From positions 2,432,001 to 2,496,000 of the forward strand of contig OY776215.1 of NCBI GenBank assembly GCA_963675495.1: 64,000 nucleotides of DNA, read 5' to 3'. This DNA comes from an uncultured Methanolobus sp. Its GTDB lineage: Archaea; Halobacteriota; Methanosarcinia; Methanosarcinales; Methanosarcinaceae. The notes under the pieces are model-generated. The model was not told where the DNA came from. It was given only the letters and a program-made list of their open reading frames with translations, and searched no databases. Position numbers and translations under genes: made by a program. Below are positions 39,297 through 46,001 of the stretch, in pieces (the first letter of the stretch is position 1; each line of letters begins with the position of its first letter).

Positions 39297-39371
39297 ATCA
39301 CCATTATCTCAACCGAAAACTTATTAATTGAGTCTGTGTATTAAGGGAAAGCACCCCAGTACTTATTGTGT

Positions 39372-39443
39372 GCCTCGGTGGCCTAGGGGTATAGCGCGTC
39401 CTTGGTAAGGACGAGATCGTGGGTTCAAATCCCACCCGAGGCT
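39372..39443 (+). tRNA. tRNA-Thr(GGT)
   Basis: Acceptor GCCTCGG/CCGAGGC, anticodon arm CGTCC-TTGGTAA-GGACG, T arm GTGGG-TTCAAAT-CCCAC, discriminator T, no encoded CCA. Confidence 0.95.
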
Positions 39444-39526
39444 CTATTATTTTTCCAGTTTAACCTCGTACTCTTAATCTATATTTTAGCTTGGAGAAGT
39501 CATTACTAAATAAATATTATATGTAA

Positions 39527-39783
39527 TTGGATGAATCACTGTTTAAGCTGATTGGGAATATCAGTGAAGAACATAAATCCAATGAATTAAAGCCTGTTAT
39601 TTGTAAAGATGTAAGACCATGAATGGTCCTACTTGTGCTTTTTGTTCTTCATGTGGAATGGCTCTGACAATTGAAGCAATTAAATATATTGAAAAAAGGA
39701 GATTGGATATATCTATGGCTCTGATGGAGCTTGTAGAGAAGGATTCGGAAGTTGCTAAGGTGTTGAGGGATGTTATAGGCTAA
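39527..39783 (+). pseudogene. C-terminal remnant of an archaeal tyrosine integrase (zinc-ribbon tail)
   Basis: LDESLFKLIGNISEEHKSNELKPVICK/RCKTMNGPTCAFCSSCGMALTIEA...; 1-nt frameshift at ~39607; 84 bp from tRNA. Confidence 0.65.
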
Positions 39784-39870
39784 TTTTACTTCTCTTCTCT
39801 ATACGAATATATAGAGTCTATACATAATTTTCTTAAACATGTAGTTTACATACTAAATATTCTCTACTAT

Positions 39871-40635
39871 TTGCTGGCTGGTGAGATTATCGCAAAAAGA
39901 AACTACAGAAAAAAAAGATATTCTCGAAAGAACGATGGCGATGATTTATTAGGAAAAATAATAGTTGCTGGATTTGCTATATTTCTGGTTTTAAGCTTAG
40001 CAATCTACATACTGGAAAATTACTGGCCTTATCTACTACTTGTTGGAATTGCATACTTAGTGTATGCTCATGGACCTTATTGCTATTCAAAATTCAAAGC
40101 AAGGAATGCATCTGTTGTACCAGAGTCTTATGAAGTCATAAATGTTGTTGATGACATAGAAATTGAAGAAGAAATAGTAGATGATGAAGATAATACAGAA
40201 AAGGGAGACATGTTTGAAAGATTCGTTGTTGATCTTTTCAGTGAACAAAGCTTCACTATTGTGGAATGGACCACAGATATGATGAGAAAACATGATCGGT
40301 ATGTTGAAGCTGACACCAGACCTGATTTAAAGCTAAGACACAAACAAACGGGTGCTGAATTCTATGTAGAATGCAAATATAGGTCATACATATTTGAAAA
40401 TAAGGTTCAGTGGTCCAGTTATGGCCAGATGCAAAGGTACAGAGAATTTGCAGATAAGATGAATTTGCCTGTTTTTGTAGTAATAGGACTGGGAGGTATG
40501 CCTGATTATCCTGAAAGACTATTTTGTATTCCTCTGGAAGATGCAAAATATACAGGATTATATCCAAGTTATTTAGGGAATTATGAACATAATCCAAGAG
40601 AATATTTTAGATGGAAATCGAATGTTCTCAATTAA
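39871..40635 (+). CDS. Membrane-anchored PD-(D/E)XK nuclease-like protein
   Basis: Basic N-terminus, two TM helices, acidic linker, then KGDMFERFV...RPDL...FYVECKYR. Confidence 0.7.
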   Translation: MLAGEIIAKRNYRKKRYSRKNDGDDLLGKIIVAGFAIFLVLSLAIYILENYWPYLLLVGIAYLVYAHGPYCYSKFKARNASVVPESYEVINVVDDIEIEEEIVDDEDNTEKGDMFERFVVDLFSEQSFTIVEWTTDMMRKHDRYVEADTRPDLKLRHKQTGAEFYVECKYRSYIFENKVQWSSYGQMQRYREFADKMNLPVFVVIGLGGMPDYPERLFCIPLEDAKYTGLYPSYLGNYEHNPREYFRWKSNVLN

Positions 40636-40674
40636 TCCAACCATAATAAGCATCATATTGAAACTTTGCCTATG

Positions 40675-40696
40675 CGCCGCCAAAGGCGGGCGTTTT
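40675..40696 (+). terminator. GC-rich hairpin plus T tract after nuclease gene
   Basis: CGCCGCC-AAA-GGCGGGCG-TTTT. Confidence 0.5.
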
Positions 40697-40866
40697 AATC
40701 ACTGGCCTTTGCCTGAGTAAAATAGCCGGCATTCTGAAAGGATGTGTAGTTATCGATTTTATTCTATTATATTATGCGGAAGTATTAAGGAATCTAAACG
40801 TAGCAGTGAGTTGGATTATAGAAAATAATAATCCATCAGTCAAAATGTTATCATTATTAAATAGCA

Positions 40867-42120
40867 ATGTTTATACGGTTTAATTCACTATTTTATATAG
40901 TGTACCCTTATATTACTTCTATTGTTAAAGTTTTATCAACTATAGGCTTAATATTTGCTAATCTGATTACGTATTTGTTCCTTTCTAACTATCTTCTGAA
41001 TGTTTCATTATGGGGTTATCTACTGTTAATTGCGTTAACTGGGGTTATTTTAAGAATTGATATTTCACTTTGGCTATGGTATTCACTTAAAAAAACATTT
41101 TCAAAAACAGTTGATTGCTTAATTAGTATTCCAAAAAAAATCAAAATGGTGAAACTTTTTAATAGTCAAGATGTATTGAAAGCAAATACATACATACTTA
41201 TTTTGCAAAAAATAAAAAAGAAAATAACCTCGTTAAAACATGCTATTAAAGGTCTCTTGCACAAAATAATTGATATGAAATTCCTTTTTGTATCTATTAG
41301 ATTATTGTTTTTCAATACGTTCTATGATTTATTTTCAGTCTATGCTATATGGTTAAGTTTACTTGGTTTAGTTCATATAACTAAAATATATACAGTACAG
41401 ATAGATGATCCAAATGAATCATTTTTTGAACTAAGTGCCATTTTAGGCATCTTTTTAGGTATTTTTCAGTTTGTATTACAAAGAAACGATGAAAAAATAG
41501 ATACTAAAATAAATTCCTACTCAAATCTTGTAAGGTCAATAATTTATCAAGAGACTCAATTTACCAAATTTTACAAAATGGTTTCTGATGATGACAATTC
41601 CCTTAAGGATTGGATTAGTAAAAATACTGATCCAAAACTCCAATTGATTGATTTTTTTAAATCATTAACTGATAATAAAGACTTTTCTACACAATTTTTT
41701 AGACTTATGAATAAGAAAAACATGCCCTTTTCAATAAATATGGCTTATCCCGATTCTAACAAACAATATGAGATTTTAGATGTGGCTGCAGAGCACGAAA
41801 AAGACAAAAAAGAAGAGTTACACAAGTTGTATCATCTGTTTTTTGTAGATGAAGAAAGAATAAACCAGATTTACAATAAAATAGATGAAAAAATAGATAT
41901 TAATGAATTCAGATTTTTAGCATTGCGTAATATCAATATCATCTCCGAGATACTTCCTAAGTTTATAACCTACGATGCACAGAAAATGGCAAGCAAAATC
42001 GGACAGGAAGAAAAGGAAAATGTAGATGAAAAAATGATTGAATTTGAATCATCAGAAGGATATATAGCCTACTTAAATGAAAAGATAAGTGGAAGAGTTC
42101 TTGGTGATTTATTAAAGTAA
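40867..42120 (+). CDS. Orphan, very AT-rich membrane protein
   Basis: 417 aa open frame; about 4 TM helices then a soluble helical C-terminal region. Confidence 0.65.
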   Translation: MFIRFNSLFYIVYPYITSIVKVLSTIGLIFANLITYLFLSNYLLNVSLWGYLLLIALTGVILRIDISLWLWYSLKKTFSKTVDCLISIPKKIKMVKLFNSQDVLKANTYILILQKIKKKITSLKHAIKGLLHKIIDMKFLFVSIRLLFFNTFYDLFSVYAIWLSLLGLVHITKIYTVQIDDPNESFFELSAILGIFLGIFQFVLQRNDEKIDTKINSYSNLVRSIIYQETQFTKFYKMVSDDDNSLKDWISKNTDPKLQLIDFFKSLTDNKDFSTQFFRLMNKKNMPFSINMAYPDSNKQYEILDVAAEHEKDKKEELHKLYHLFFVDEERINQIYNKIDEKIDINEFRFLALRNINIISEILPKFITYDAQKMASKIGQEEKENVDEKMIEFESSEGYIAYLNEKISGRVLGDLLK

Positions 42121-42147
42121 CATTTATCTTAATAACATTAAGTAATT

Positions 42148-42800
42148 TTATACTAAAGCATCAATAACCTCACAAGTATCATACAGTTCTAGAATAGGTG
42201 AAGGGTCAATCATAATCTGTGAAGGAGAAAGGGAAAAAGTTCCCCACTTATCTTTTTTTAGGGTATCGACTTTGATAAGAAGAGGATTATCATCCTCGTC
42301 TTTAACTGTTTCTACTATAGGATGGCCACCATTCTGTCACTGTAGCGGTCGTCTATGAGGTCCATGGACTGCATGTTAAGATATGCGTTCATGTCACGTT
42401 TTGCAAGTTTTGAGAGGATAACAGAGCCTTTCATGTTGGTTTTTGTGCCAAATGCCCGGGAATCGAAGGTATACCATGCTTCGTCCATGACAAAGGTACC
42501 GGACTGCATAGAATCCATCTGTTGAATAGATGTTATGCGAGTATGTGGGAATTCAAGATGATAGTTTGAATAGATCGGTATACCTTGAAGGTAATCACGG
42601 TATGCAATAGCAGTCACTAAGGCGGTTTTGCCTGCTGGAAGGAGTCTACTATCATACGTTCTTGGTCAGGAATATATCGAGGTTTAAACGGCTTCAGGTT
42701 CTTATTACGTTCCTTGAAAGGACGAATGACACCAGAATCTACAAACACATTACCAAATATCTTTTTGAAGCCAACATTAAAGCCTAAATATAAATTAACG
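42148..42800 (-). pseudogene. Frameshifted Zot/inovirus pI-like (FtsK-HerA-related) viral ATPase
   Basis: Stitched frames: ...PDQERMIV/PAGKTALVTAIAY..IYSNY..FVMDEAWYTFDSR..MQSMDLIDDR../..ILELYDTCEVI*; degenerate Walker A, Walker B with DSR, Q..ID.R, and YDT tail. Confidence 0.65.
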
Positions 42801-43006
42801 AGAAGCTCTTTTTCATATTATTAATATCGATAACTTTTTAGTTTTCATTTATTTCTCTTGTCTGAATTTATTTGTTGCATAGTCGAATTTAAAATTTGAG
42901 ATTTCATTTTATACTGGGGCATTTTGTCGTCTATACACGACAAAAAACACATATTTTATCGTTTATACTCGATGGGTATATAAGCAAAAAGACACAATTA
43001 TTATTT

Positions 43007-44332
43007 ATGGACACCAGGGATAAGCTGAAAAGTACTATTATTGACTGGCAGGGGAGGGAGTTACCGCCACTTCAAAGACGTAAATATGAGCTAAATATTG
43101 ATACGCCTCATGTAAATGATATTGTGGGTGTCAGGAGATGTGGTAAAACCTATTACATGTATCAGTTGATGTCTGAATTGCTTGAACAGGGTGTACCAAA
43201 GAACAATATATTGTATTTGAATCTTGATGATGACAGGCTGCAGCCACTTAATGGAGATGAACTTCAACTCCTGATCGAGACATTCAGGGAAATGCAGGAG
43301 ATATCCGAAGACGATCGTTTGTATATTTTCCTGGATGAGATCCAGAACTTTCCTTCATGGGAGAGATGGGTCAAAGGCATCTATGACAGAAAACAAAACG
43401 TGAAGATCGTAATAAGTGGTTCAAATGCATCCCTGCTTTCACAGGATATATCCACACTGCTTACTGGCAGGCATCTAAGCACAAGAATGTTCCCTTTCAG
43501 TTTTCAGGAATATCTGGATTTTCATTCGATAACCTATGATGTGAAAGAACTCCCCTATTCCGAAGACAGAGCAATTATCAAGCGCAAGTTCACAGAATAT
43601 CTTAAAAATGGAGGATTTCCTGAGACTATCGTCTATCCATCTATCCAGCATCGGGAAATATTACAGTCGTATTTCGATGACATCATATATCGTGATATAA
43701 TCTCACGATACGGGATACGTAATCCTATTATCTTCAAGGACCTTGCATTGTTCTGCATATCAAACATCGCAAAACCACATACTTACAATTCTCTCAAACG
43801 GCTGTTTGCTAATTATTCATCTCTCAGTACAGATGCCATAATTAATTATCTTTCATATCTTGAAGATACCTTTTTGCTTTTCAGTATCCGGCATTATGAT
43901 GAATCATTGAAGCAGCAGATGAACAAACCCCGGAAGTTGTATTGCATAGACACAGGTATGATTAACGCAGTCTCCTTCAAACTCACCTCTGACACCGGAA
44001 GATTATACGAAAATCTGGTTTTCATCCAGCTTTTACGCTCTGGTGATGAAATATATTACTGGCAAAATCAGAAAGGACATGAAGTTGATTTTGTAATGAA
44101 GAAAGGACTTGATCCAACCCAATTGATACAGGTATGCTTTGATCTGTCTGACCCCAAAACCAAAGAACGTGAGATAAATGGTCTCCTGGCTGGGATGACG
44201 AATTTTAAGATGAACGAGGGTACTATCATCACTTCAGATGATTTTGGCGAGGAGATTGTTGATGGGAAGAAGGTGAGGTATGTGCCATTGTGGTATTGGT
44301 TGTTGGAAGGGGATGGTGTTTTGGGAGTATAA
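43007..44332 (+). CDS. AAA_14 ATPase with DUF4143 (PD-(D/E)XK) C-terminus (COG1373-like)
   Basis: GVRRCGKT, FLDEIQ, SGS, LTGR, GGFPE, YEN.VF, HEVDF. Confidence 0.9.
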   Translation: MDTRDKLKSTIIDWQGRELPPLQRRKYELNIDTPHVNDIVGVRRCGKTYYMYQLMSELLEQGVPKNNILYLNLDDDRLQPLNGDELQLLIETFREMQEISEDDRLYIFLDEIQNFPSWERWVKGIYDRKQNVKIVISGSNASLLSQDISTLLTGRHLSTRMFPFSFQEYLDFHSITYDVKELPYSEDRAIIKRKFTEYLKNGGFPETIVYPSIQHREILQSYFDDIIYRDIISRYGIRNPIIFKDLALFCISNIAKPHTYNSLKRLFANYSSLSTDAIINYLSYLEDTFLLFSIRHYDESLKQQMNKPRKLYCIDTGMINAVSFKLTSDTGRLYENLVFIQLLRSGDEIYYWQNQKGHEVDFVMKKGLDPTQLIQVCFDLSDPKTKEREINGLLAGMTNFKMNEGTIITSDDFGEEIVDGKKVRYVPLWYWLLEGDGVLGV

Positions 44333-45813: not shown

Positions 45814-46001
45814 CTTTTTCTTTTTCTAAGTATCAGCTATTACGATGAATCATTGAAGAAGCAGATGACAAACCATGGAATTTGTATTACATAAATATAG
45901 GTATGGTTAACACAATCTCCTTCAAGATTTTCTACGCCATTGGAAGATTATACGGAAATCTTGTTTTCATCTCGGTTTTAGCTCTGGTGATTGCATATAT
46001 T
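45814..46001 (+). pseudogene. Degenerate copy of part of the AAA_14-DUF4143 gene (matches 43870-44057)
   Basis: Collinear identical blocks GATGAATCATTGAAG, TCTCCTTCAA, GGAAGATTATACG, GCTCTGGTGAT; frameshifted. Confidence 0.85.

Follow-up and report, generated by a model that had tools for sequence, protein, structure and literature searches.

The Zot and protein I (pI) ATPases of filamentous phages (PF05707; structure 2r2a; M13 protein I) are P-loop proteins with a recognizable order of motifs, in which an N-terminal Walker A is followed by an SNY-type strand, a Walker B DE, F.D/xSR, QS..D..D.R and a YDT/YES tail. A pI-like ATPase is also the marker of inovirus-like proviruses in archaea: four inovirus-like sequences were reported from Methanosarcinaceae and Aenigmarchaeota, with small single-transmembrane proteins and integrases, and an excised circular form of the provirus in Methanolobus profundi MobM was detected by polymerase chain reaction (Roux et al., 2019, PMC6813254). 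The Lokiarchaeota virus WyrdV1 has a pI-like ATPase as well, in its case without a transmembrane domain (Medvedeva et al., 10.1101/2021.07.29.453957). Here, we examine the minus strand of positions 42148-42860 in a 64,000-nucleotide stretch of contig OY776215.1 from an uncultured Methanolobus sp. (the window in what follows), for which an initial annotation, made from the letters alone, had proposed the relic of a Zot/pI-like morphogenesis ATPase gene left by a small archaeal virus, and had correctly stated that inovirus-like proviruses are reported from Methanosarcinaceae.

We conclude, with a probability of about 90%, that the locus (39445 to about 42920) is a decayed, immobile remnant, approximately 3.5 kb long, of a virus-like element once integrated beside a tRNA; the family of this element is found in Methanosarcinaceae. 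This conclusion follows from the homology of the ATPase pieces, the accompanying scraps of an integrase gene and of a gene for a DUF7845 protein, the intact copies with their gene order, an empty integration site in a relative, and the low guanine-plus-cytosine (GC) content. The remnant is thus a fossil of a known kind of mobile element with intact copies in related species, and unlike the proviruses of Roux et al. (2019), which were likewise found in Methanosarcinaceae, it is a dead fragment rather than a complete provirus.

All motif strings quoted in the initial annotation were found on the minus strand by inspection of the reading frames. A single frame (42318-42641) carries LLPAGKTALVTAIAY, IYSNY, FVMDEAWYTFDSR and MQSMDLIDDR, reading as LLPAGKTALVTAIAYRDYLQGIPIYSNY...FVMDEAWYTFDSR...MQSMDLIDDRYSDRMVAIL before it ends in TAG TAG, and contains the annotated open reading frame (ORF) of 100 amino acids, which is open from a GTG start (42315-42617). 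The second frame (42148-42318) reads IVETVKDEDDNPLL...ILELYDTCEVIDALV and then stops, the stop following IDALV and not EVI as had been stated, while the third, upstream (42620-42817), reads ...FNVGFKKIFGNVFVDSGVIRPFKERNKNLKPF...DSFQQAKPP to its own stop. When an intact orthologue was compared with the window by tblastn, both its residues 18-123 (88.7% identity) and its residues 129-180 were covered. Together with the matches in other genomes of the family (see below), this agreement goes well past what chance would produce. Intact proteins, which start M..R...G(R/K)(F/Y)(A/S)IIG(E/D)(Y/L)S(A/E)GKT and end ...LYDT(S/C)E..., carry every motif of the relic, and therefore the middle ORF and the out-of-frame tail are parts of one gene, as had been suspected of the YDT-containing frame.

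The initial annotation had further taken the 100-amino-acid ORF for the middle of a longer, frameshifted gene, which proved right for its downstream side and wrong for its upstream side. Downstream, DNA alignment with intact genes places a 1-nucleotide deletion at 42317/42318 (CCTA-TAG here versus CTTATAG in intact genes), which is the only frame change in the relic and gives rise to the TAG TAG stops; in a second sample from that study, a contig spans 42139-42332 with 0 differences. Upstream, the break is a deletion junction, that is, a truncation without a frameshift. Homology to intact ATPase genes begins only at CAGCAGGCAAAACC, the codons for (S)AGKT, and the point at which the alignment switches to the DUF7845 gene is a CAGCAG common to both genes. 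In intact elements, approximately 7.6 kb (in genome G068), comprising the entire structural module, lie between the two points that are fused here. Intact genes have GEYSAGKT or GDLSAGKT as their Walker A, of which the window copy keeps AGKT only, so that no complete Walker A (GxxxxGKT/S at the N-terminus) is present. The frame upstream is the C-terminal region of the DUF7845 gene, and the PAGKT that had been read as a degenerate Walker A therefore consists of a proline encoded by the junction plus the last four residues of a normal motif. We also considered that one missing G might explain the break, its return giving a GLLPAGKT Walker A continuous with the ORF upstream; this was dropped, the upstream frame being the DUF7845 gene.

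The ATPase relic has thus lost the initial strand and the first P-loop glycine, its frame is broken after approximately residue 123, and it is a pseudogene of the Zot/pI family rather than a working member. Given the 5' deletion, the 1-nucleotide deletion and the loss of all partner genes, the gene must be considered dead. We regard it as hardly credible that assembly errors produced the breaks in an ATPase gene that is whole in the cell, or that the 100-amino-acid ORF is a functional mini-protein. The ORF is indeed open, with its GTG start, but it has neither the P-loop start nor the C-terminal third of the fold, and at the 5' end of the gene the damage is structural, another gene being fused to it. 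Moreover, contigs from two samples of one study, one of them possibly the assembly's own source and those of the second sample short and fragmentary, show no differences or indels over 39300-43000. Relatives hold relics that are truncated differently, and therefore no common frame is conserved among them.

The relic gene is, on DNA comparison, a mosaic. Its positions 42350-42650 are 91-96% identical to the intact gene of G082, whereas the 30 or so nucleotides leading up to the frameshift (42319-42349) resemble the G091 type most (77%), and the last third of the gene has 75-81% DNA identity to the G075/G091 type and approximately 50% to the G082/G068 type. A word-indexed protein search for the relic inside longer proteins gave no match among 67 candidates, and a search of the same genome (G000) for a second ATPase copy returned the relic itself as the sole match.

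The borders of the insert are given by relative G068, in which the same tRNA-Thr gene is followed approximately 100 bp on by the DUF4143 gene that in the window starts at 42896 (an AAA_14/DUF4143 host gene). From this empty site, the insert extends from 39453 to about 42920 (Table 1). At the tRNA side, the intact integrase of G068 matches the window by tblastn in two different frames, with residues 312-336 at 39527-39604 and residues 338-394 at 39607-39777. At the far side, no second copy of the tRNA 3' end (attR) was found, the 29-nucleotide and 19-nucleotide patterns searched for occurring once in the window at up to 3 mismatches. The tRNA-adjacent tyrosine integrase flanked by attachment (att) repeats that would mark a functional provirus is therefore missing from the window and, with neither integrase nor attR, the remnant cannot excise or move. 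The truncation point of the DUF7845 gene beside the host DUF4143 gene recurs in G082 with 94% DNA identity.

Only two ORFs of the remnant are still open. The nuclease-like gene has 46% identity to a homologue in G068, and G082 also has a homologue between its ATPase and integrase genes; the window copy matches no Pfam or PADLOC family. The second ORF, of 417 amino acids, likewise without a Pfam or PADLOC family, has a GC content of 0.25-0.29, compared with 0.40-0.48 in the host flanks. Homologues with approximately 40% identity were found in 4 of the 176 other genomes of the family, one of these homologues being broken by stop codons, and the ORF is absent from the other tRNA-Thr sites compared; it is probably mobile cargo.

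Table 1. Features of the remnant in the window, and genes of the structural module of intact elements in their order ahead of and including the ATPase gene.
Feature	Position in window	Strand	Basis or remark
tRNA-Thr (GGT), integration target, left border	39372..39444	+	ARAGORN
Tyrosine integrase stub, C-terminal zinc-ribbon tail, approximately residues 312-394 of 394	39527..39780	+	frame change near 39604-39607
Open 254-amino-acid nuclease-like cargo gene (family 13)	39871..40635	+	two N-terminal hydrophobic segments, PD-(D/E)XK/Mrr-like domain
Orphan 417-amino-acid ORF, very AT-rich, between nuclease-like gene and ATPase relic	40867..42120	+	hydrophobic N-terminal third
ATPase relic, C-terminal part (approximately residues 124-180, LYDT tail and stop codon)	42148..42317	-	out of frame with middle part
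ATPase relic, N-terminal and middle part (approximately residues 18-123)	42318..42637	-	AGKT of Walker A, IYSNY, Walker B DEAW, DSR, MQSMDL; includes 100-amino-acid ORF
Deletion junction, CAGCAG microhomology, DUF7845 fragment joined to ATPase inside Walker A	42632..42637	-	DNA alignments to intact ATPase and intact DUF7845 genes
Fragment of 479-485-amino-acid DUF7845/winged-helix protein (approximately residues 391-449)	42638..42817	-	tblastn, 62.7% identity, E 3e-19
Right edge of remnant	42818..42920	.	homology to G068 empty site resumes at 42921
Module gene 1			soluble protein, approximately 90-100 amino acids
Module gene 2			coat-like, 91-127 amino acids; signal-like N-terminus, long hydrophobic stretch, basic tail
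Module gene 3			type-I membrane protein, 116-120 amino acids
Module gene 4			adhesin- or spike-like, 350-731 amino acids; signal peptide and C-terminal anchor
Module gene 5			membrane protein, approximately 320 amino acids
Module gene 6			protein of approximately 150 amino acids, C-terminal anchor
Module gene 7			soluble protein, approximately 125 amino acids
Module gene 8, last			Zot/pI-like P-loop ATPase, approximately 180 amino acids

In a six-frame search of 177 genomes of the same family, this one included, the middle piece of the relic matched 14 other genomes, giving 15 of 177 genomes with 16 places (best E 1.3e-63). Six of these places hold complete genes with an ATG start, encoding ATPases of 179-184 amino acids (G082, G068, G101, G075, G091, and G051), one (G162) holds an open frame that lacks a canonical start ahead of the P-loop, and nine, including the one in the window, are truncated or interrupted. 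The element family is thus common in Methanolobus-like methanogens, and decay is the rule for its ATPase gene, with 9 of the 16 matched places broken. Matches to a narrow profile in a sample of 401 genomes of the phylum were limited to this one family (13/401), and the source names on homologues of the approximately 125-amino-acid module protein are Methanolobus, Methanomethylovorans, and Methanohalophilus. Most relics elsewhere (L008 in G094, L009 in G046, L011 in G098, and L013-L016) keep the 3' end of the gene and have lost the 5' end, which is consistent with deletions that proceed outward from inside the element and spare the end next to the integrase. One of these loci (L013 442-1110, in G093) has in addition a separate ORF of 223 amino acids that starts IWGVPGAGKTY and carries the IVIDEAYRNYNSRD and AYDT motifs and which, judged by its sequence, represents another Zot-like ATPase lineage within that genus, distinct from the first.

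The membership of the ATPase in the Zot/pI type, which the initial annotation had proposed from the order of motifs, is well founded at the level of the family. An exhaustive profile search retrieved 1,961 cluster representatives at E ≤ 0.001, 702 of them at E ≤ 1e-10. Pfam Zot (PF05707) is matched by 56 of 109 aligned family members (best E 5.3e-10), ahead of AAA with 25 and nSTAND3 with 24, and the profile built from these 109 sequences finds 2r2a in the PDB at E 3.4e-14, aligned from the P-loop to the LYDT/LYES tail, the next matches being P-loop-only at E of at least 0.0045. All four intact orthologues tested match phrog_1675 (M13 protein I), with E values from 1.6e-5 to 0.054. An AlphaFold model of an intact orthologue (predicted local distance difference test score, 94.1) has as its top match in BFVD an Inoviridae Zot ('Zonular occludens toxin'; E 2.5e-11, TMq 0.77) and as its top match in the PDB 2r2a, the N-terminal domain of zonular occludens toxin from N. 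meningitidis (E 4.3e-9, TMq 0.63), while RecA/Rad51-like and viral packaging ATPases rank approximately three orders of magnitude weaker. The predicted fold and the motif order are therefore those of the Zot/pI ATPases of filamentous phages. Unlike those, however, the intact methanogen ATPases, of approximately 180 amino acids, stop about 10 residues past LYDT and show no hydrophobic segment in a hydropathy scan, so that the transmembrane helix and C-terminal domain of canonical inovirus pI (M13 gene I type) are absent. The same holds more widely, since 145 of the 150 best family representatives lack a predicted hydrophobic segment in a crude Kyte-Doolittle scan.

The intact copies show what has been lost from the window. 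A conserved order of genes precedes the ATPase in seven loci from six genera-level relatives (Table 1). From the tRNA inward, the elements consist of a tyrosine integrase, variable cargo, the structural module, which is convergent on the integrase, and, at the end opposite the tRNA, the DUF7845 winged-helix protein, whose gene has the orientation of the module genes. The integrase of G068 matches Pfam Phage_integrase (E 5.9e-17), and in all three loci with both an integrase and a tRNA (3/3) the two genes lie directly side by side, the tRNA being Thr-CGT, Ser, or Arg. The intact DUF7845 protein matches Pfam DUF7845 (E 1.5e-23), phrog_3288 (E 5.8e-14), and a winged-helix ORF of Pyrococcus abyssi virus 1 (E 9e-6). 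The search of Methanosarcinaceae genomes that the initial annotation had suggested thus found intact copies in tRNA-integrated elements with an integrase, a small coat-like membrane protein and adhesin-like genes, and its view of the locus as the fossil of a small archaeal virus-like element was borne out. No att repeats emerged from a direct-repeat search of the window and of three intact loci at the settings used.

Several further features of intact elements were recorded. The cargo of G068 and G082 includes a membrane-anchored nuclease-like protein, encoded between ATPase and integrase, with weak Pfam matches to Mrr_cat (E 0.0033, below cutoff) and PDDEXK_11. In the G068 element (L018 3404-4284), five copies of a 37-nucleotide motif with the core CCCATAATAAAGGAAG are spaced 156-290 nucleotides apart, each ahead of a small ORF whose ATG lies within approximately 10 nucleotides; the motif is likely to act as a promoter or ribosome-binding unit that recurs ahead of the early genes of the element. 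Three large homologous genes (approximately 760-890, 473-486, and 489-567 amino acids) lie beside the ATPase in G101 (L019 1834-7386), where they are situated between integrase and ATPase, and in G162 (L023 10540-16084), where no integrase was seen in the locus. By its repeated motifs, one of these genes may encode a type I restriction-modification specificity subunit.

With respect to the kind of virus from which such elements derive, we tentatively entertain, at somewhat less than even odds, a genuine inovirus-type archaeal virus, that is, a filamentous virus with single-stranded DNA that is extruded from the cell, as in Roux et al. (2019). Besides the pI/Zot-like ATPase and the circular form excised in M. 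profundi, this origin is suggested by the protein encoded ahead of the adhesin-like gene, which in 6/6 intact elements is built like an inovirus major coat precursor: its signal-like N-terminus closes with AAA, and an acidic start leads into a single long hydrophobic stretch and then a basic tail. Its leads to coat families are weak: three of six members match phrog_2186 (best E 0.0024), coat families appear at E 0.028-0.15, among them phrog_6548 'major coat protein' (E 0.028), and Atlas rows with Phage_Coat_B or Phage_coatGP8 appear at 0.88. The 90-amino-acid protein encoded just upstream, modeled with four strands and helices (score 74.6 on the same confidence scale as above), gives sub-threshold matches to PUR/Whirly-like folds that bind single-stranded DNA (Foldseek E 0.03, VIA Z 4.5-4.6), neither E ≤ 0.001 in Foldseek nor a VIA Z of 5 being reached. 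However, none of these coat and DNA-binding similarities reaches significance, and the ATPase is devoid of both a transmembrane and a C-terminal domain. Among the scanned proteins, an HUH-type replication protein was not recognized, the large protein being the DUF7845/winged-helix protein, and no statement of virion shape was seen in the main text of Roux et al. (2019). A non-filamentous parent, spindle-shaped or pleomorphic and wyrdvirus-like, that shares a pI-like assembly ATPase with inoviruses is possible, although clearly short of an even chance. In tblastn, the ATPase finds its best viral counterparts in Muninn virus (E 3e-9) and, with G162 as the query, in WyrdV1 (E 2e-8), ahead of Spiroplasma plectrovirus ORF2 (7e-4) and inovirus Zot (approximately 1e-3), and the family profile aligns with the WyrdV1 ATPase over its full length, tail included (hhalign 99.8%, E 1.9e-30). 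Both WyrdV1 (MZ666939) and Muninn (OM716000) have His1-like capsid genes and an order of capsid, adhesin, four to five small genes and an ATPase of the same family without a transmembrane segment; such an ATPase, closing a block of adhesin and small genes, is also what the methanogen elements have. The two genes just upstream of the methanogen ATPase are weakly collinear with the pair that precedes the Muninn ATPase (probability 53%, E 1.3e-4; 26-30%, E 5-7e-4), and the scarcity of hydrophobic segments among the best ATPase representatives is consistent with this relationship. So is the DUF7845 match, Pyrococcus abyssi virus 1 being spindle-shaped. On the other hand, the Muninn collinearity is below the usual significance and rests on thin profiles (5-21 sequences compared with single sequences), no His1-like capsid was found, the coat-like protein reaches 0.3% in hhalign against the WyrdV1 capsid proteins and has no tblastn match in the phage collection, and the other module families reach at most 13% against the WyrdV1 or Muninn capsid, again with profiles so thin that a divergent capsid may have escaped notice. 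In place of the His1-like capsid genes, and of the protein-primed polymerase that Muninn also has, the methanogen elements have an integrase and the DUF7845 protein.

An origin as a non-viral integrative plasmid or defense island, with an ATPase that does not serve virion assembly, appears improbable. The nuclease-like genes between integrase and ATPase, the large cargo genes of two loci, the annotation of the DUF7845 protein in PHROGs only as a transcriptional regulator and the fact that the capsid protein of the elements is not proven are all compatible with it, but a block of secreted and membrane proteins, including the adhesin-like protein, always precedes the ATPase, and the best matches of the ATPase in tblastn and BFVD are all viral. 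The alternative given in the initial annotation, a pleolipovirus-type ATPase, is weaker, and we judge a pleolipovirus-type parent very improbable. The gene order of HRPV-1 (FJ685651) is loosely alike, with a small membrane protein, a spike, small ORFs, and an ATPase, and its VP8 shows a distant and partial likeness to the family profile from Walker A through Walker B to DE..F.D.R (hhalign 69.5%, E 4.3e-5). However, VP8 has 343 amino acids with a long N-terminal extension, no pleolipovirus is among the tblastn matches of the ATPase at E up to 10, and none of the module families exceeds 2% probability against HRPV-1 VP3, VP4, ORF6, or ORF7. Finally, the elements, instead of being relatives of filamentous phages that were acquired from bacteria, could represent a distinct archaeal virus lineage that shares an entire assembly block with the spindle-shaped Asgard viruses and pairs it with an inovirus-style single-helix coat; the block would consist of two small proteins and the pI-like ATPase without a transmembrane segment. 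As formulated, we consider this rather unlikely. If true, it would provide a bridge between filamentous and spindle-shaped virus assembly, and would hint that the ATPase clade arose in archaea and not in bacteria.

Several observations weigh against our reading of the locus as a remnant of a virus-like element with a Zot/pI-type ATPase. A Pfam scan of the three relic frames found 0 families, the relic alone reaches phrog_1675 'morphogenesis (protein I of M13)' only at E 0.14, Pfam Zot is missed by 4/4 single intact orthologues, and a profile of 7 close orthologues found in the PDB only an unrelated match at E 0.4. The comparison with Pfam Zot that the initial annotation had called for thus succeeded for the family and failed for the relic frames and for single orthologues, and therefore the assignment rests on profiles and structure. 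The nearest viral relatives of the ATPase belong to viruses with His1-like capsid genes, of the spindle type, and not to filamentous phages. The identity of the elements described here with the Methanosarcinaceae inovirus-like family of Roux et al. (2019) is one that we infer, and no later re-evaluation of that family was found in the literature searches made. In addition, positions 42350-42650 are closest to an intact gene that lies elsewhere in G082, yet it is the junction between DUF7845 and the host gene that is common to both genomes. Lastly, the role of the ATPase is assigned by analogy only.

Taken together, we favor a course of decay that starts from an intact, tRNA-integrated virus-like element. 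A microhomology-mediated deletion would have removed the first 17 or so codons of the ATPase gene together with the whole structural module, fusing what was left to the DUF7845 scrap. At least three lesions would be needed to produce the remnant, namely a deletion on the integrase side, the internal deletion at the microhomology and the 1-nucleotide deletion, and the loss of the attR side would be one more. By analogy with the pI of filamentous phages, the ATPase of an intact element would provide the energy for assembling or extruding virions at the membrane, and since it has no anchor of its own, contact with the membrane would be supplied in trans by the neighboring membrane proteins. For this genome, the locus is of little consequence, and it should be annotated as a pseudogene in a degraded element at tRNA-Thr instead of as a 100-amino-acid hypothetical protein. 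The by-products are of wider use: the link to the ATPases of spindle-type viruses, and the six intact copies, which provide material for asking whether archaeal 'inoviruses' are filamentous.

The tRNA-Thr (GGT) gene is a recurrent site of landing and decay across species. Among the loci compared (L049-L053, in G082, G081, G085, G088, and G068), the site holds differing remnants in at least five species and is empty in one. For example, ATPase scraps lie 2-3 kb from the tRNA-Thr gene in G081 and G085, and in G082 an integrase adjoins a second tRNA-like sequence. In G088, there is a full DUF7845 gene, an integrase and, 6.4 kb away, a 27-nucleotide copy (96%) of the tRNA 3' end, which is likely an att repeat.

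The host gene next to the remnant (42896-44332, plus strand) encodes a 478-amino-acid ATPase with AAA_14 and DUF4143 domains (Pfam E 8.7e-40 and 6.1e-24), which also matches the PADLOC candidate defense family PDC-S01 (E 8.3e-125). A degenerate copy of approximately 165 nucleotides of the 3' part of this gene (78-81% identity) is found 1.9 kb downstream, at 45817-45980, behind a UspA-like gene.

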